Shown: piece by piece, positions 13,263 through 40,761 of the stretch
Position numbering within the stretch: the stretch's first letter is position 1
How the letters are laid out: the number at the start of each line of letters is the position of its first letter
IMG/VR virus record: IMGVR_UViG_3300020045_002682
Span: 1-47,902 of that record
Origin: a virus
Lineage: Duplodnaviria; Caudoviricetes
DNA length: 47,902 bases
Strand: one strand, 5' to 3'
Notes under the pieces: model-generated
Told to the model about the DNA's origin: nothing
The model's input: only the letters and a program-made list of their open reading frames with translations
Databases searched by the model: none
Position numbers and translations under genes: made by a program

Positions 13263-13418
13263 ATGCATAAAAAAATCACCAGCACCATCAACGCGCGCCG
13301 TGAAATGTCCGTCCATCAAATTATCGCGGCGCTACCTGATTGCCAACCATGCCTTGAGCGCATGATAGATCATGGCGCGCTTCGGGTTACTGGCGCTTTG
13401 AGGCTCAGGGTAAAATGA
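13263..13418 (+). CDS. Small hypothetical protein
   Basis: AGGA RBS; ATGA coupling to the sigma gene. Confidence 0.5.
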   Translation: MHKKITSTINARREMSVHQIIAALPDCQPCLERMIDHGALRVTGALRLRVK

Positions 13419-13900
13419 CATACGAGCAGATGTATAAACGCTATTACCGGGATGTGCTATGGTACATGCAGCGCAAGTGCAATCCTGTTATCCTAGACCC
13501 CCTTGAAGTGACGCAAGATGTTTTCCTGCGTGCATGGAAAGAGTGGGGCAACAGGATGCAGGACGACATCAAGCGTTGGCTTTTTACCCTCTCTAAAAGA
13601 GTTCTGTGGTATGTTAGTAAATACGCATACGCGCAGAAGAAACAAAGTAATGGCATTTGCGCTTGGGATGAACAATCCGACACCCGTAACGTAAGGGCTA
13701 CTCAGGAGGATTCAGTGCTCTTGAGGCAGCTTGACATAGCTATTGACAATCTGCCTGAAGCGCAGCGTTATGCTATGCGCGGCGCCATGCAGGGGCTTAA
13801 CAATAAAGAGATTGCCGATATGAAAGGCAATGTCTCCATCCAGGCTATATTCGGCTCCTTGCAATCAGCACGCAAAAAACTGCTCTTGATAACGGAATAA
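13415..13900 (+). CDS. ECF-type RNA polymerase sigma factor
   Basis: Region 2: YEQMYKRYY...EVTQDVFLRAW...KRWLFTLSKR; region 4: IDNLPEAQRYA..GLNNKEIADM...LQSARKKL. Confidence 0.82.
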   Translation: MTYEQMYKRYYRDVLWYMQRKCNPVILDPLEVTQDVFLRAWKEWGNRMQDDIKRWLFTLSKRVLWYVSKYAYAQKKQSNGICAWDEQSDTRNVRATQEDSVLLRQLDIAIDNLPEAQRYAMRGAMQGLNNKEIADMKGNVSIQAIFGSLQSARKKLLLITE

Positions 13901-13902
13901 AT

Positions 13903-14907
13903 ATGACAATTAGCAAAGTTGGATTAACGACACCTTCAGTGGGCTACAAGCCATTCCGGTATGGGCAGGCGTATGAATACTGGCAGACACAGCAACGAGT
14001 GCATTGGCTTGCGGAGGAGGTGCCTTTAGGACAAGACTGCCAGCAATGGATTGATGGCACACTTTCGCCTGAAGAAAAGAATTTGCTGACGCAGATTTTT
14101 AAGTATTTCACGCAGGCTGACATTGAAGTGCAGAATTGCTACCATGAGCAATATGGCAAAGTCTTTAAGCCTACAGAAGTAAAGATGATGCTTGCGGCAT
14201 TTTCGAATGCCGAGACTATCCATGTTGCAGCATATTCGCATCTTATCGACACTATCGGCATGGATGAGTCGCAGTACAGTGCGTTCATGGACCTTGAGGC
14301 CATGCGTGATAAGCATGACTACATGCAGCAATTTGGCGTTGAAAGCGACGCTGCGATTCTAACTACCCTCGCTTGCTTTGGGGCCTTTACCGAAGGTTTG
14401 CAGCTTTTTGCCAGTTTTGCAATGCTGCTAAACTTCCAGCGATTTAACAAGATGAAGGGCATGGGCCAGATCGTAACATGGTCCGTCCGGGATGAAAGCC
14501 TGCACTGTGAAGGTATTATCTGGCTGTTTCACCAGTTTGCCCGCGAAACAGGCGCACTCACAAATGAAGTCAAAGAGGCTATCATTCAGCACTGCCGCAA
14601 TGTCGTGGCGCTTGAAGATAAGTTTATCGACTTGGTTTTTGAGATGGGTGGTGTTAAAGGCATGGAGCCTGGAGACATAAAGCAATATATCCGGTTCATT
14701 GCGGATTGGCGTCTAGGCCAACTGGGTCTTGAGCCAATCTATCTTATTGAAGATCACCCATTGCCATGGCTTCAGCCCATCCTTAACGGAGTTGAGCATG
14801 CTAACTTTTTCGAGGCTCGCGCCACCGAGTATTCAAAGGCTGCTACAACCGGAACATGGCAAGACACTTGGGCAAACTTTGACAGCAGGAAGATTATTCA
14901 TGGATGA
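13903..14907 (+). CDS. nrdB: Ribonucleotide reductase class Ia beta subunit
   Basis: HWLAEEVPL, FTQADIEV, AETIHVAAYSHL (metal ligands and radical Tyr), FTEGLQLFASF, RDESLH, HANFFEARATEY. Confidence 0.95.
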   Translation: MTISKVGLTTPSVGYKPFRYGQAYEYWQTQQRVHWLAEEVPLGQDCQQWIDGTLSPEEKNLLTQIFKYFTQADIEVQNCYHEQYGKVFKPTEVKMMLAAFSNAETIHVAAYSHLIDTIGMDESQYSAFMDLEAMRDKHDYMQQFGVESDAAILTTLACFGAFTEGLQLFASFAMLLNFQRFNKMKGMGQIVTWSVRDESLHCEGIIWLFHQFARETGALTNEVKEAIIQHCRNVVALEDKFIDLVFEMGGVKGMEPGDIKQYIRFIADWRLGQLGLEPIYLIEDHPLPWLQPILNGVEHANFFEARATEYSKAATTGTWQDTWANFDSRKIIHG

Positions 14908-17120: not shown

Positions 17121-17609
17121 TCACTTAGCCAAACCTTTGTCGGCCAAACTTTGACCCCATTCGTATGCGGACTGCGCATAAACCCACGCGCCATCGCAAG
17201 CCTTTAAGTCGGATTCGTCAACCGCCACGATGGTTTCGGGGGCGGTGACTTCAGGAAGTCCGGACGCTCGATTACTGGCGGCAATGGCTTTAGCGGCGGG
17301 ACATTGTTGCACGCGGTTAGCACGAATGTAAGCATCAAGGCTGTCGCTAGTTTCAGTGAGTTCTTCATAGGTTTGCTGCGCCTCCTTTGACGCGGTTTTA
17401 GCATCTGCGGTAGCCTTAGCGGTTGCGGCTGCAGCAGCCTTTGACTTAGCCTGCCACTCCGCAATGTCGGCGGTGTATCGTTCCTGGATATTCGCGCGAC
17501 TAACCCAAAGCCATAGGCTGATAGCCGCCAAGATGGCGCAAGCCGAAGCTGCTGGGTAGCGCGCAATGAAGCCCCATGCGTTGCGTAGGGCCAAGATGAT
17601 CCATGTCAT
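17121..17609 (-). CDS. Inner-membrane spanin (Rz-like)
   Basis: N-terminal TM then Ala-rich coiled coil; contains an embedded lipoprotein ORF. Confidence 0.75.
   Translation of the reverse strand: MTWIILALRNAWGFIARYPAASACAILAAISLWLWVSRANIQERYTADIAEWQAKSKAAAAATAKATADAKTASKEAQQTYEELTETSDSLDAYIRANRVQQCPAAKAIAASNRASGLPEVTAPETIVAVDESDLKACDGAWVYAQSAYEWGQSLADKGLAK
17204..17368 (-). CDS. Outer-membrane spanin lipoprotein (Rz1-like), embedded
   Basis: MKNSLKLATALMLTFVLTAC lipobox; Pro-rich mature part; alternative frame inside Rz. Confidence 0.8.
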   Translation of the reverse strand: MKNSLKLATALMLTFVLTACNNVPPLKPLPPVIERPDFLKSPPPKPSWRLTNPT

Positions 17610-17842
17610 TCTTCCGCATCCTTGACATTTACAGGGTCTTCAGGGGTGCCTTTTGGCAAAGATGGCAAGCGTTCATTACCACGACTAGGAACTAGTCCGG
17701 GCGCAAGCATACCCAAAACGCCTATAAGGCCGGTCATAATAGCAAGGTCAGCCCCGCTCCCGCCGATCTTTGACAGCAGGACAACCGCAATCAAGGTGGC
17801 GATAAAAGCCACCAATCCGGTGATGCGGGCTTGGGATATCAC
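17606..17842 (-). CDS. Putative holin (2 TM)
   Basis: Two TM helices and charged tail; between endolysin and spanins. Confidence 0.6.
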   Translation of the reverse strand: MISQARITGLVAFIATLIAVVLLSKIGGSGADLAIMTGLIGVLGMLAPGLVPSRGNERLPSLPKGTPEDPVNVKDAEE

Positions 17843-18414
17843 CCTAACCCACCATACAACTTAGCCTCATCAGCACGCCTGCTTTTTAGGCCAGCCATAA
17901 CGCGGCCCGCAGCCTTGTTCCAACGCGCAAATTCCAGCTTGGCCCCGGTATAATCACCAGCCTTGTGCTTGCGCAGAAGTGTGGATGAATTGAAATTACC
18001 AATCCCTACATTGTAGGCAAGGGACACCATTGCATCAAACTGGTCCTGCGTGGTTTTAGCCCCTGCAAGCGCCTTAGATACGCCATCGGAGAACTGCGCA
18101 ACATGGCTGGCAAACCTCTCTTGAGCCTGCGCCTTAGTCCATACCGTGCCCCGGATAATATCCTTGCCTGTAGAGCCCCATCCAATCGTCCATGGAGCAC
18201 CGCCAGTAGCTGGGTCTGGATAGGACTGCACCTTGCCATTACCAAGGTCTTTGGCGTAGCCCTCCCACTTCTTAATCAGGGCCTCACCCTTACCACCTAG
18301 ATTCATCGCGATCTCCATCTTGTCCAAAACCACATCAAGAGCGGCTACGTCTTCGCCAGTCAATGGCCTACCTAGTTCGGACCGCAGTACATCAAAGATG
18401 GCCTTACGGTTCAC
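17839..18414 (-). CDS. Endolysin, GH24 lysozyme
   Basis: LIKKWEG..YPDPATGGAPWTIGWGST, QFDAMVSLAYNVG, GLKSRRADE; GTG start after GAGGGG. Confidence 0.93.
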   Translation of the reverse strand: MNRKAIFDVLRSELGRPLTGEDVAALDVVLDKMEIAMNLGGKGEALIKKWEGYAKDLGNGKVQSYPDPATGGAPWTIGWGSTGKDIIRGTVWTKAQAQERFASHVAQFSDGVSKALAGAKTTQDQFDAMVSLAYNVGIGNFNSSTLLRKHKAGDYTGAKLEFARWNKAAGRVMAGLKSRRADEAKLYGGLG

Positions 18415-18785
18415 AAAATGCCCCTCCAGGCAATCCATGTCACAAACCATATGCCGTAAAGGCCAAGAGCAAGGCGCAACTTGCCAAGCACATGGATTAC
18501 AGCGGTCTTAGATGCCAGCCATGCAGCCCAACCGAACCACAACAGATAGTTTGTGGTGGTAAAATCCGCAGCACTGTTTCCTGAAATGATCGTGGCTGCA
18601 AAAATGAAAAGTGCGCCGAGAGGGTGGACCCAAAGCGCAATTGAAAGCCAGAACGCCCGGTTGTTCCAGGCTTTGACGCCGGGAACCATAGCCTCCGCCT
18701 TGATGATAGGCGGAAGCCATACGCACATGATTACAGAGCCGATGGCAAGCATACCAAGTAGTAGAGAGGCGAAATCAGTCATCAT
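18411..18785 (-). CDS. Membrane protein (~4 TM)
   Basis: Hydrophobic segments; coupled to the endolysin. Confidence 0.7.
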   Translation of the reverse strand: MMTDFASLLLGMLAIGSVIMCVWLPPIIKAEAMVPGVKAWNNRAFWLSIALWVHPLGALFIFAATIISGNSAADFTTTNYLLWFGWAAWLASKTAVIHVLGKLRLALGLYGIWFVTWIAWRGIL

Positions 18786-18930: not shown

Positions 18931-19128
18931 TTAACTTTCTGCGTCCCCCACTGATTTCACCACTTCCCGAGTAGCCCGAATGACTTCCCTTTGAGCGGTT
19001 ACGGCTTCGATTAGTTGCAGGCCCATGCGCTCTATCACTCGGTCCTTCGCTGCATTGGAGCGAAACAAGAGAACCACAAAACCTGCTATCGGGCCATATT
19101 GTGTGGCGATTGCCAAAAACTCTTGCAC
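18931..19128 (-). CDS. Holin-like single-TM protein
   Basis: TQYGPIAGFVVLLF then coiled coil; GAGG RBS. Confidence 0.6.
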   Translation of the reverse strand: MQEFLAIATQYGPIAGFVVLLFRSNAAKDRVIERMGLQLIEAVTAQREVIRATREVVKSVGDAES

Positions 19129-19535
19129 TATGACCCTCGTTTAGCATTTATAGCTCCTGCACTTCGCGGCCCGTGTGTGTAAGTGCTAAGCGCATTTTGT
19201 AGTTGTGGCCAAGGCCCTGCCATGATAAACTGGATAACCGCGATCCAGTAGAGCGGATACCAGTTGTCCGGCTTCGTGTAGAAAAACCAAACAACCGGAT
19301 AAACCGAGATAACCCAAAGGTCAGATGGATGTGACCGCCATAACAGCGCCGTCACGCAGACAGCTATGTCTGTAAAGAAGTAATACGCCACAGGAACGTG
19401 AACGCCTGCGCGCATATAAATGGCCTCACCTATAGCCCATTGCAGGAGCAACGCCAATGCCACTGGACGCCAAAGGCTCCCCGGCGCAAGCCAGAGAGCC
19501 ATTACAGCGTACATGAGGCATTGATAGGGATTCAT
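19128..19535 (-). CDS. Aromatic-rich membrane protein (4-5 TM)
   Basis: Hydrophobic segments with an intramembrane Asp (FFTDIAV); coupled on both sides. Confidence 0.75.
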   Translation of the reverse strand: MNPYQCLMYAVMALWLAPGSLWRPVALALLLQWAIGEAIYMRAGVHVPVAYYFFTDIAVCVTALLWRSHPSDLWVISVYPVVWFFYTKPDNWYPLYWIAVIQFIMAGPWPQLQNALSTYTHGPRSAGAINAKRGS

Positions 19536-19648
19536 CCGGGCGGATCACCGGAACCGTTCCCACCGCCCCGGGTTGTGGATTCTGGCACGGGATTCGTTGG
19601 CGATACTGGTTTAGGCTCTGGCTTGTCGCATTTGCTTTCCTTGGTCAT
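19532..19648 (-). CDS. 38-aa Pro/Gly micro-peptide MTKESKCDKPEPKPVSPTNPVPESTTRGGGNGSGDPPG
   Basis: AAGGA RBS; ATGA overlaps at both ends. Confidence 0.65.
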   Translation of the reverse strand: MTKESKCDKPEPKPVSPTNPVPESTTRGGGNGSGDPPG

Positions 19649-19767
19649 TTGATGTTCCTTTTATTGTAATACGCAGCGAACACCGGATCGCGAAGTTCGG
19701 CGGCGATCTGCGCCTCGGTGAGTTGTCCCGACCTGATGCAGGTGAGGATGCGTTCAAACTTGCTCAT
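19645..19767 (-). CDS. 40-aa protein MSKFERILTCIRSGQLTEAQI...
   Basis: GAGG RBS; ATGA overlaps at both ends. Confidence 0.65.
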   Translation of the reverse strand: MSKFERILTCIRSGQLTEAQIAAELRDPVFAAYYNKRNIK

Positions 19768-20057
19768 ACCGATTTTACCTCAACCTCTGGCGCGTCGATG
19801 ATGTCGTCGATGAACTGCAAAATCGTCTTGTCGGCACGAACGAACTGGGCACTTTCTACGCGACGCTTGACGAAATCGAACTCGGACTCTTCAAGCAGAA
19901 GAAACCCGTCTTCAGCATCGTCCAGCTTGTCAATGACCTTAACTGCGGCACGAAGTTGCGAGAGGTTGTAAGGCTCACGGCCTGGAGTCGAAATGATCTG
20001 CTTCAGGTCCGCTCGGTAGTTGGAATTGTCGTATTCTTTAAGTTCGATCTTGCGCAT
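19764..20057 (-). CDS. Putative tail fibre assembly chaperone
   Basis: Directly after the tail fibre; AAGGAG RBS; acidic helical protein. Confidence 0.55.
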   Translation of the reverse strand: MRKIELKEYDNSNYRADLKQIISTPGREPYNLSQLRAAVKVIDKLDDAEDGFLLLEESEFDFVKRRVESAQFVRADKTILQFIDDIIDAPEVEVKSV

Positions 20058-20073: not shown

Positions 20074-21492
20074 TTACGCGTTGAAATACTGGACCTTGTA
20101 GGCCGACCCGTTGAGTTTGATAGTGAAGTAGCCGGCACCTGTGCCCGCGCTGCCTGCGACCACGGGATCGACAAAATCAACCACGCCTGTGCCTTGCCCG
20201 GCCAGTCGAAGATCGGCGTTGGTTTCGCCAATGGGGCGTAGCGTTGGGCCGATTCCGGTATTACCGGGGGTGAGCGCCAGTCCGTTGACGTAAGTGTCGC
20301 TGGCCACGACCTGCAGCAGATTGTTGTTGTTGGCATTGCGGATCAAAAGGCCGGTATCGCTCGCTAGAATCTTCTGCTGTGCATTGTTGTTGGTTACGTC
20401 CGAATTGATGCTGAAGCCGGGTCCACCGCCGTTGTACACCCATCGGATAGCAGCACCCTTTGACACTTCCATGGCAATGCCGCTGCCGGTAATGCCGTCT
20501 GTCCCCAGCAGCGCCGTAGCACCGATCACGATACCCTTCTCGACCGCAGCGCCGTTGTTGATGATAGCGATACAAGCCGAAGCAGTGTTGGACCCGAACT
20601 CGCCACCCGATGCCAGCCAAGCGCCTGCTGTGAGACCCGACGAAAACATATTAAACGGGTTCATCGAAACAAGATCGCCATAGTTGACGATATCAACTTC
20701 AAATCCGTGAGTGGTTCCCGCACCCGCGTAGCGGCGGGCCTCCATATAAACCGCGTAGGCAGTCTGCACCTGGGCGGTGTTGTCGTTGATCGCCCAGAAA
20801 TTGCCACCGATGCAACCCATCGACCCAGCCACCGAGAAGTCAGATGTGCGTGACCCGCCTAGAATGGCGGTCTGGCCAATCGTCGAAAGTACAGCCAACT
20901 GGGAGTTATTAGTGGTGGAAACTCGTTCTTCTTCAAGCCAGTCCACGGTGATGTTTGTGAGGTTGCCATCGTTTTCGCACGCGCCGCCGATGAATACACG
21001 ATCTCGCATCTGGTAGATGCGCGCACCGTCGCCTACATCTTTCCAGAAACCGAGCGCAGGCGCCGCAGGCTCGAAGCCTCCAAGCCACGATGCCACCGTG
21101 CCCGGCTCGGGATCGGCAAGGTAATCATGGCCGATGAATGCAGAACCTGCCGAGCCAGCTAGTGCGTTGGTCGTGGCTAGGGTTCTCTGCTCGACAGCGG
21201 TGCCGCCATCATTTAGATAAACCGTAACCGTGCCGTCGCCGTTATCGACCGCGAAACCCTCGCCATCCGTGGTTGCCGCAATACCAGCAGCCGTGCTGGC
21301 GTAGTTAGGCCCTGCAGCAGCTTCAGCAGTTGCCGCCGAAGCTGCCGCATCAGCATTCAACTTGGCCATAGCCTGTTCGTCGGTGTCTGTAGGTAGTACG
21401 CCATATTGACCAGTGCGACGCAAAATGTCAGCCTGACTTTCGCCCCGCGCACCTTGCACGTTTATCTTCACGGTAGGCGTGGTAACAGGCAT
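20074..21492 (-). CDS. Tail fibre / receptor-binding protein
   Basis: YASTAAGIAATTDGEGFAV N-terminal module; Gly/Asn-rich beta body; position. Confidence 0.75.
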   Translation of the reverse strand: MPVTTPTVKINVQGARGESQADILRRTGQYGVLPTDTDEQAMAKLNADAAASAATAEAAAGPNYASTAAGIAATTDGEGFAVDNGDGTVTVYLNDGGTAVEQRTLATTNALAGSAGSAFIGHDYLADPEPGTVASWLGGFEPAAPALGFWKDVGDGARIYQMRDRVFIGGACENDGNLTNITVDWLEEERVSTTNNSQLAVLSTIGQTAILGGSRTSDFSVAGSMGCIGGNFWAINDNTAQVQTAYAVYMEARRYAGAGTTHGFEVDIVNYGDLVSMNPFNMFSSGLTAGAWLASGGEFGSNTASACIAIINNGAAVEKGIVIGATALLGTDGITGSGIAMEVSKGAAIRWVYNGGGPGFSINSDVTNNNAQQKILASDTGLLIRNANNNNLLQVVASDTYVNGLALTPGNTGIGPTLRPIGETNADLRLAGQGTGVVDFVDPVVAGSAGTGAGYFTIKLNGSAYKVQYFNA

Positions 21493-39270: not shown

Positions 39271-39421
39271 ACCAGGATTCTATTGGGTGCGCTATGTAGT
39301 GCCTTATGTGGCTGAGTGGGGCGCTGACGATAAGTGGTATCTTCCCGGCCTCACTCAGCCATACGCCGACAAAGACTTCACCTACATCGCGGATCAGCCT
39401 ATCAAGGCGTCGATTGAGTAG
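39263..39421 (+). CDS. 52-aa protein MREPGFYWVR...
   Basis: AAGGAGG RBS; overlaps the terL 3' end convergently. Confidence 0.65.
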   Translation: MREPGFYWVRYVVPYVAEWGADDKWYLPGLTQPYADKDFTYIADQPIKASIE

Positions 39422-40761
39422 CGGCTTCCACCCGTCATTAATTCGGTCATAGCCCAAACCAAAGCATCCGCCCTATCTGGCGAACCTTCACCTACATATC
39501 CGGATGCCGTAAAATTGCACATTTGATCCTCAAGGTCGGGAAGGTCGCCACAGTGACTAACCCGGCCTTGTTCGTATATGGCGCTGATAGGCTCTGCGCG
39601 CACAACCTTGCCGCGAGTAGCGGTTACAGCCTTGAACGGGATATTGCGATTGGAACTCTGGATGATGGCGCGCACCATATCGCCGCCGAAGTTCTTTTCA
39701 GCCACAATCCTATCTGCCCCATAACGCTTATACAGGTCGCAGGCGCGCTTACCCCACCCCTCGGGTGACATATTGCAGGATGCATCCTCCAGCACGTATC
39801 CCCGACCATCTGTGCCTAGCCCTGCCACAACAATTCCAATGTCGTCACCTCCACCATCACCCTTAGTGCCGGATGGATCGACGGCTACAACGATACGCTG
39901 GAAGTCCACAGGCGAACCAGCATAGGAGGCTAGGGGCTTGCCTTCATCCCACTCTAGGCGCGCACGGAATTGGTCTATGCCTGGAATGTCGCCAGCCTCA
40001 GTAACGCGGTTCTCCAGCGCCCATAGGGCACCGTTGACTTCGCTTGCCCATTCGCCGCTTTCGAAGCGTAGGCGCTGGGCGGCTGACATGTTTCCGAGAA
40101 TCTCGAAATACTTGGGCGGTAGGTTTTCGACGTTATCAGCAGGATTGACCAGCATTTCTGCGTAGTCATCAGGGTTCTGTAGCTTCTCCTTTGTTCCGGG
40201 CTTCATTTTTGCCCGGAAGAGTTGGAAGCTCCAATGAAGTTTGCTAGGAGGGTTGCAGTCGAAGAACGCCTTTAGCTTAATGTGCGTCTTGCCAGTGTAT
40301 TTAGCTATATCAGGATGCAGTTTTACATTCTGAGCAAGACGCGACATAGCCATCTCAACGGATGACCAAGGAATCTGCGAGGCTTCGTTGAAATAAAGCG
40401 TGGCATATTCTTGTCCGAGTACACGCTCCACACGTTCGTTAGAATCCAGGCCACCTAAAACAATCTGACTTCCGTTATCGAAAGTCATAATTAGGTCGGT
40501 TTCATTCTTAGTATACTTCAAGTCAGGAAAGCAGAGCTTTAGAACTTTAGGGAGGGTATCTTTCCAGATAGATGCGCGCGCGTGATTAAACCGGAAGCGC
40601 CAGATAGCGTGCCGGGAACCAGGGGCGTTAATGCAACGCTGGATTATGGTGCGAACTAGGAGGAATGTCTTGCCGCTACGGCTACCCCCGCGCAACATCA
40701 CATTAGATGCCGGTCCAGAAAGTAGTGCGCGTGCCTCTAGCTGCTTAGGCGTTAATTTCAA
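39394..40761 (-). CDS. terL: Terminase large subunit
   Basis: LRGGSRSGKT, YFNEASQ, DCNPP, VVAVDP, AEKNFGG, SPDRADALVW. Confidence 0.95.
   Translation of the reverse strand: MKLTPKQLEARALLSGPASNVMLRGGSRSGKTFLLVRTIIQRCINAPGSRHAIWRFRFNHARASIWKDTLPKVLKLCFPDLKYTKNETDLIMTFDNGSQIVLGGLDSNERVERVLGQEYATLYFNEASQIPWSSVEMAMSRLAQNVKLHPDIAKYTGKTHIKLKAFFDCNPPSKLHWSFQLFRAKMKPGTKEKLQNPDDYAEMLVNPADNVENLPPKYFEILGNMSAAQRLRFESGEWASEVNGALWALENRVTEAGDIPGIDQFRARLEWDEGKPLASYAGSPVDFQRIVVAVDPSGTKGDGGGDDIGIVVAGLGTDGRGYVLEDASCNMSPEGWGKRACDLYKRYGADRIVAEKNFGGDMVRAIIQSSNRNIPFKAVTATRGKVVRAEPISAIYEQGRVSHCGDLPDLEDQMCNFTASGYVGEGSPDRADALVWAMTELMTGGSRYSIDALIG

Follow-up and report, generated by a model that had tools for sequence, protein, structure and literature searches.

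A small Gly-Gly/Pro-Pro peptide gene and a five-helix membrane protein gene form a conserved pair beside phage lysis genes and are proposed to be a peptide ligand and its receptor

The window, which is the whole stretch of DNA that was analyzed, comprises 47,902 nucleotides (47.9 kb) and represents a complete phage record. Head, tail and replication genes are present, and no integrase was identified among the 54 window ORFs that were scanned against PHROGs. The closest cultured match for the capsid is found in a Sinorhizobium phage (55%), while the terminase (window 39394-40761) shares 67% identity with phages deposited as Synechococcus phages (OM868079.1). Judged by sequence, an alphaproteobacterium is a plausible host of this phage. 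In the late region of the minus strand, a tail-fibre-like gene is followed by ORFs for proteins of 97, 40, 38, 135 and 65 aa, then by an ORF of approximately 46-50 codons, a gene for a 124-aa membrane protein, the endolysin gene, an ORF of 78 aa and spanin-like genes. The features are listed in the order of transcription.

20074..21492, minus strand: 472-aa tail-fibre-like gene upstream of the module, named from its position and a reading by eye (no PHROG match)
19764..20057, minus strand: 97-aa ORF that follows the tail-fibre-like gene, no family match
19645..19767, minus strand: gene for the 40-aa CIRSGQ protein, a neighbour from a separate family
19656..19660, minus strand: AAGGA, ribosome-binding site of the peptide gene, located inside the 40-aa gene, 8 nt before the ATG
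19532..19648, minus strand: gene for the 38-aa peptide precursor, with a leader (residues 1-27) and a conserved C-terminal core
19535..19567, minus strand: conserved core GGGNGSGDPPG (residues 28-38), preceded by Arg
19543-19549, minus strand: GGTGATC, SD-like sequence of the membrane protein gene, 7 nt before its ATG and within the Gly-Asp-Pro codons of the peptide
19128..19535, minus strand: 135-aa five-helix membrane protein of an unnamed family, predicted to lie in the inner membrane with N-out/C-in orientation
18931..19128, minus strand: 65-aa protein with a single hydrophobic segment near its N-terminus, followed by a tail that resembles a coiled coil
18411..18785, minus strand: 124-aa multi-pass membrane protein, candidate second holin or antiholin
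17839..18450, minus strand: endolysin, phage lysozyme PF00959 (E 1.7e-37)
17121..17609, minus strand: i-spanin-like gene, named from shape and position
ending at 17204: Rz1-like o-spanin ORF (phrog_456, E 8e-4), embedded in the i-spanin-like gene

The genes are tightly coupled. The junctions between the 97-aa and 40-aa, the 40-aa and 38-aa, and the 38-aa and 135-aa ORFs are ATGA overlaps of 4 nt each, and the 135-aa and 65-aa ORFs share a TAG/GTG overlap of 1 nt. An earlier note on this DNA had described the ORFs, their ATGA overlaps and the sequence of the peptide, and all of these lie on the minus strand where it had placed them. It had also counted the 40-aa CIRSGQ protein as a member of the module, and this assignment had to be abandoned. 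A membrane gene was present within 1.3 kb in 0 of 26 CIRSGQ loci, and tblastn with the CIRSGQ protein matched none of the 20 other module loci, among which L063 carries C[IL]RSG as a bare string. By its sequence, the gene for the 40-aa protein is real and of a separate family. CIRSGQ proteins (36-53 aa) make up a family that is conserved among phages but has no name and no counterpart in Pfam, PHROGs or the Atlas; their size and pattern may recall XkdX-type proteins. The 26 pattern matches included 12 small relatives, found at loci L110, L111, L113, L118, L119, L121-L123, L127, L129, L131 and L134; at L111 and L119 the CIRSGQ gene is located directly before a one-helix coiled-coil gene. The 97-aa ORF has no counterpart in the 20 other module loci.

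From viral and metagenome contigs, 23 distinct loci were recovered, the window among them. Duplicate contigs were merged, and the near-identical loci L027 and L031 were each counted. L005 and L007 were left out of the upstream count because their contigs begin inside the membrane gene, so that 21 loci remained. All 21 loci with upstream DNA have an ORF of 35-115 codons next to the membrane gene, ending between 7 nt before and 2 nt after the membrane gene start. The motif GG-x(1-6)-PP occurs within the last 30 residues of this ORF in 19 of the 21 loci, compared with 8 of the 2,310 remaining open stretches in these loci; in the two exceptions (L074 and L095), the ORF is Pro-rich and contains part of the motif. 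The 38-codon gene and the gene for the 135-aa membrane protein are a conserved pair, beyond what would be expected by chance, and these counts bear out the expectation that homologues of the membrane protein would have an adjacent peptide ORF. The usual site of the pair is between tail-fibre-like and lysis genes: a tail-fibre-like ORF precedes it in 14 loci (by eye), and at least 11 of 21 loci have an endolysin-like ORF no more than about 2 kb further downstream, a count made by eye and confirmed by searches for the window and L016 only. When only the peptide core was searched for as a DNA pattern, none of the 5 loci returned was useful, and among 301 sampled Pseudomonadota genomes a single one contained a match, which was weak (E 0.003). 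The genome-contig scan also returned one false positive (L008), which was discarded.

Analysis of the peptides separates a variable leader from a constrained core. In the window, the leader is rich in Pro, Lys and Glu and variable. The N-terminal parts are unrelated among the loci and can be Pro/Lys-rich, helical, beta-like or a coiled coil of approximately 100 residues, while the membrane proteins of the linked loci share 27-69% pairwise identity. In the near clade, the core reads [QRS]-GG[GA][NAT], with Gln or Arg before the Gly-Gly in 10 of 11 loci. The far clade contains GG(G)[TSNHD]…PP with longer Pro runs, and the residue before the Gly-Gly varies between Asp, Ser, Thr, Phe and Pro. Core similarity follows the identity of the membrane proteins (rho 0.46, permutation p 0.0002, 18 loci), whereas leader similarity does not (rho -0.05, p 0.69, 18 loci). 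As kinship alone could yield the correlation of the cores, it demonstrates constraint on the core and not co-evolution. SD-like words were found by eye ahead of 19 of 20 peptide starts. A reading of the sequences revealed no hydrophobic N-terminal export signal in any of the 21 module peptides.

The membrane protein belongs to an unnamed family. Neither the protein nor its relatives belong to a Pfam or PHROG family, and among 150 relatives only three weak matches were obtained, each for a single member. No relative was found among solved structures, by sequence or with Foldseek, and tblastn with two family members gave no match in the phage collection. A single-sequence search returned 18 relatives and a profile search 46; in the full library, 205 clusters at 50% identity match the family. 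Conservation was calculated from an alignment of 187 collected proteins of up to 200 aa. The most conserved columns are D56 (98%), Q102 (98%), Y86 (94%), W83 (90%), D72 (89%) and L29 (88%), followed by W33 (84%), L95 (84%), W92 (83%), E/Q37 (83%) and G44 (81%); Y52 is also among the conserved residues. D56, Y86, Q102, W83, W33 and W92 represent the near-invariant set of the family. The same alignment contains no conserved Cys, His or Ser, and no Cys or His column exceeds 40%.

An AlphaFold2 model built from 150 sequences (mean pLDDT 92) contains five helices and a short C-terminal helix, with limits at residues 3-20, 24-43, 49-65, 71-86 (kinked), 92-105 and 109-116. This model and the conservation of D56 agree with the initial description of an aromatic-rich protein with four to five transmembrane helices and an intramembrane Asp. 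Lys/Arg values are 1.2 for loop 1, 2.3 for loop 3 and 3.9 for the C-terminal tail, versus 0.25 and 0.6 for loops 2 and 4. As the basic residues are found in loops 1 and 3 and in the tail, an N-out/C-in orientation is predicted. E37, Y52, D56, W83, Y86 and W92 are then predicted to point towards the periplasm, and the helix limits of the model suggest that the most conserved polar and aromatic residues may form a pocket in the periplasmic half. A VIA-align search with the first model returned generic helix bundles only (best Z 8.8). The three longest members (367-385 aa) contain no Pfam domain, and no signalling fusion was found among the best 150 of the 205 clusters; as the longest members lack a known domain, any signal would be passed on by contact with a neighbour. 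P0121, P0135 and P0170 have a similar C-terminal extension of approximately 200 aa with no Pfam match, and this extension may be due to read-through across an inserted or antisense gene.

The neighbour in question could be the product of the 65-aa gene. Downstream DNA is available for 20 loci, and in 14 of them the membrane gene is directly followed by a gene for a protein of 65-153 aa with one N-terminal hydrophobic segment and a coiled-coil-like tail. One of the remaining six loci has the reverse arrangement and five (L065, L066, L068, L073 and L074) were left without a call. This downstream partner varies in length and sequence among the loci. Pfam and PHROGs contain no holin family that matches the 65-aa gene, which also lacks a match to T or RI, and weak holin-profile matches (E 0.006-0.017) were obtained for 2 of 16 scanned relatives. 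The earlier note had the membrane gene coupled to a holin-like gene: the coupling is evident from the 1-nt TAG/GTG overlap, but the holin label finds no counterpart in Pfam or PHROGs. From its shape and position, the 65-aa protein is a candidate for a holin or lysis partner and a likely output of the module. Two further ORFs near the lysis genes were recorded. The product of 18411-18785 is a second unnamed multi-pass membrane protein of approximately 120 aa just before the endolysin, common to three module loci, with homologues in L053 and L025 and, weakly, in L003. At L074:2834-3229, a 131-aa ORF that appears by eye to encode a stand-alone PAS-like protein lies between the holin-like gene and the endolysin.

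Fold comparisons were used to look for similar pairs in cultured phages. Foldseek against viral models gave nothing at E <= 0.001, and the E-values of all look-alikes exceed 0.2. Nevertheless, several phage proteins of 139-166 aa reach TM 0.5-0.6, and the matches in BFVD also included Rheinheimera and uncultured entries. One look-alike (K4JPZ4) was equated by its length with phiCbK gp289, the sole 166-aa membrane ORF in the 200 kb that were read; gp082 and gp259, the first phiCbK candidates, were dropped because they are not membrane proteins. The multi-pass membrane protein gp289 is preceded by gp288, a helical protein of 86 aa; CcrRogue and BL57 share its C-terminal end TGGEDKPDAPE.PP. The gp288-gp289 pair (L061:39065-39836) is located far from the lysis genes, and a different, non-membrane gene follows it. 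A second look-alike, N0DPG0 (TM 0.52), was equated by length with ORF50 (143 aa) of Edwardsiella phage PEi21, which has relatives in 77 phage records. ORF50 is preceded by ORF49 (L105:27644-27769), whose 41 codons include three tandem DAGGRGKTR units, and itself precedes a gene with holin matches (E 8e-4), beside endolysin and spanins; the ORF49 gene group is divergent from the SAR endolysin and spanins. In the three of these records that were inspected, JD001 (Klebsiella), PEAT2 (Pectobacterium) and Vibrio 367.14, an AGG-containing gene of 30-38 codons is found before the membrane gene and a phrog_13707 gene behind it. The gammaproteobacterial look-alikes adjoin endolysin and holin-like genes, and the PEi21-type peptides are mostly devoid of PP.

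At the sequence level, the look-alikes are not significantly related to the window family (hhalign probability 0.5-2.8%), and the hhalign alignments pair the Tyr…Asp of helix 3. When compared with 100 shuffles each, two of the four phiCbK-type proteins scored better than 99-100 of them, and none of the four PEi21-type proteins did. A GG-peptide gene was found upstream of both look-alikes that were followed (2 of 2, a small number), which is suggestive.

The reading that we tentatively prefer, with somewhat less than even confidence, is that the pair encodes a peptide ligand and a membrane receptor that together tune the timing of lysis. The precursor would be made late and, because it has no export signal, would stay in the cytoplasm and exit at lysis or with the virions. 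A cut just ahead of the Gly-Gly, which in the near clade would follow Gln or Arg, would release a short core whose end is protected by Pro. This core would reach the periplasm of an infected cell nearby and bind the membrane protein, where D56 could take the new N-terminus of the core and the Trp/Tyr ring could take the prolines. The membrane protein would then act on the coupled one-helix holin-like protein and shift lysis, which would probably be delayed if lysis is frequent nearby, similar to lysis inhibition. The three tandem DAGGRGKTR cores of PEi21 would suit a diffusible product by analogy, and are a lead only. Several observations weigh against a ligand. The precursor lacks an export signal, a peptide of 10-16 residues would have to cross the outer membrane, and the residue before the Gly-Gly is variable in the far clade. 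In addition, 2 of 21 peptides lack the motif, no holin family matches the downstream gene and the look-alike pair of phiCbK is far from the lysis genes of that phage. A wider form of the ligand proposal would extend it to the look-alikes of Caulobacter, Edwardsiella, Klebsiella, Vibrio and Pectobacterium phages, which would be joined to the family by fold and gene layout. Peptide communication would then be widespread among phages of Gram-negative hosts, with a released GG-core, a stand-alone five-helix receptor, a holin clock that is reset and clade-specific 'dialects'; this extension is conceivable but doubtful.

Alternatively, the peptide might act in the cell where it is made, either as an intracellular timer or antidote that binds the membrane protein from the cytoplasmic side or as a substrate that the membrane protein cuts and exports. 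We consider this rather unlikely, although the missing export signal would fit it and the tight coupling of the genes would fix the stoichiometry. The two conserved acidic residues D56 and D72 could be catalytic, and the Atlas contains a weak likeness to A24 aspartic peptidases that is under the bar (TM 0.42-0.45). A GxGD motif, which goes with two apposed membrane Asp residues in GxGD/A24 peptidases, is not conserved in the 187 sequences. Against a processor, no peptidase family was matched and D72, where helix 4 begins, is predicted to face the cytoplasm and lies away from D56. The lack of a conserved Cys, His or Ser also argues against a processing enzyme, and an exporter would need a separate receptor gene, none of which is conserved nearby. 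The layout is reminiscent of AgrB/AgrD, where a small precursor gene lies beside a small polytopic membrane protein. AgrB is a membrane peptidase with conserved catalytic Cys and His that cuts and exports AgrD, and the core of AgrD has a ring-forming Cys or Ser and a hydrophobic C-terminal ring. The module differs from the AgrB/AgrD/AgrC system in that it has neither a conserved Cys/His pair nor a kinase domain, its core contains no thiolactone Cys and Pfam gives no match. An AgrB-type thiolactone system was rejected on these grounds, as no Cys/His column exceeds 40%, the cores are GG-x-PP lacking Cys and AgrB Pfam matches are absent.

A peptide-receptor pair could also have another output, such as superinfection exclusion, counter-defence or a different membrane process, in which case the position in the lysis cassette would reflect late transcription only. 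The phiCbK-type pair, outside a lysis cassette and before a different, non-membrane gene, is in line with this explanation, as is the downstream partner that differs in length and sequence. The endolysin-like ORFs found no more than about 2 kb further on in at least 11 of the 21 family loci speak against it, and so do the gammaproteobacterial look-alikes that are also beside endolysin and holin-like genes. Another output appears improbable.

A small probability is likewise given to a cis-acting leader. Here, the small ORF would control translation, either by a polyproline stall or by a GG/CC hairpin that covers the following ribosome-binding site. It would thereby set how much is made of an ordinary holin or antiholin with an accessory role, and the peptide would have no role as a ligand. 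The small ORF always abuts the membrane gene, the SD of the membrane gene lies inside Gly-Asp-Pro codons in the window, and GGN/CCN codons are able to pair. DPP, GPP, PPG and PPP are strong EF-P-dependent stall motifs. Polyproline stalling leaders such as CutF/CruR likewise have a small upstream ORF that ends in Pro-Pro motifs before a membrane-protein gene. Unlike CutF/CruR, the module has no exported Cys-rich sensor domain, the first PP and the stop are separated by a variable distance (1-16 codons) and a Gly-Gly core is conserved. The Gly/Pro codons of the motif do fold into hairpins, but native sequences compared with synonymous controls gave a median z of -0.54, with z below -1.65 in only 4 of 20 loci. 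An RNA hairpin as the sole constraint was consequently rejected, as 16 of 20 loci show no excess stability. In every case the motif is in frame, so that it is translated as Gly/Pro, and the ORF that contains it has a ribosome-binding site. The sequence data favour a constraint that acts on the peptide, with some probability left for a stalling leader. A leader also leaves the near-invariant polar pocket and the clade-specific cores unaccounted for, and among the PEi21-type peptides, whose homology is only conjectural, most have no PP and one has three tandem cores. The very improbable option of a lasso or other modified-peptide precursor, for which the T-R|G…D8 spacing of the window core (Thr at -2, Gly1, Asp8) fits the lasso rule, was rejected because Thr -2 and Asp/Glu 7-9 occur together in the window only and are not kept across the 21 peptides, most homologues having no acidic residue at core position 7-9, and the tail is just three residues. 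In addition, the scanned ORFs of the window (15; 54 for PHROGs only) include no gene for a cyclase, a protease or an RRE.

To our knowledge, phage peptide signalling is known from Firmicutes, with intracellular receptors and the control of lysogeny. In RRNPP systems, the propeptide is secreted, the receptor is an intracellular TPR protein in Firmicutes and the decision between lysis and lysogeny is controlled. The arbitrium/RRNPP systems are represented by AimP-AimR of Bacillus phages (PMC10075063). Like the module, these systems consist of two adjacent phage genes and combine a small propeptide, whose mature part is short and C-terminal, with a cognate partner, and they report phage density, which is also the proposed role of the module. 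Unlike them, the module has peptides that lack an N-terminal secretion signal (21 peptides) and a five-helix membrane protein of 135 aa as a partner in place of an intracellular TPR receptor. Its hosts are presumably Gram-negative, its neighbours are lysis genes and no integrase is present among the window ORFs scanned.

In output, the module would resemble T4 lysis inhibition, where RI is a soluble, secreted periplasmic antiholin of holin T, a holin with a periplasmic globular domain, and superinfecting DNA is the signal. Control of lysis timing by phage density has a described mechanism in T4, via this DNA signal, whereas the trigger in N4 is treated as still open (PMC12642591). In T4, a periplasm-side signal delays lysis via a single-helix holin, and the candidate partner of the module is also a one-helix protein. 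Unlike T/RI, the module has a polytopic candidate sensor and a gene-encoded peptide as the candidate signal, contains no secreted protein and shows no family match to T or RI. BSPM4 ORF52, a 64-aa single-helix protein that binds the holin itself, is another small phage protein that modulates a holin and confers an advantage at high phage density, and its description includes no peptide-plus-receptor pair (PMC11657625). A full-text literature search, in which few subscription journals are covered, gave no description of such a peptide and membrane protein layout. What is new, as judged from sequence, are the parts and their layout, with the function being proposed only.

If the ligand-receptor proposal is correct, a gene-encoded peptide that is read by a membrane protein would provide a new form of phage-phage communication and a new control point of lysis. 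Even if the pair acts within one cell, it would represent an undescribed and widespread lysis-cassette family. The small gene of the module is often missed by annotation, as exemplified by JD001 (L106:781-897) and PEAT2 (L108:793-885), whose small AGG ORFs have ribosome-binding sites and are unannotated in the records. The cores are linear peptides of 9-16 residues and look-alike pairs are found in cultured phages such as phiCbK, which makes the proposal directly testable. Elsewhere in the window, where no large subunit of ribonucleotide reductase was found among the ORFs scanned, the gene for its small subunit adjoins a sigma-factor-like gene (13415-14907).
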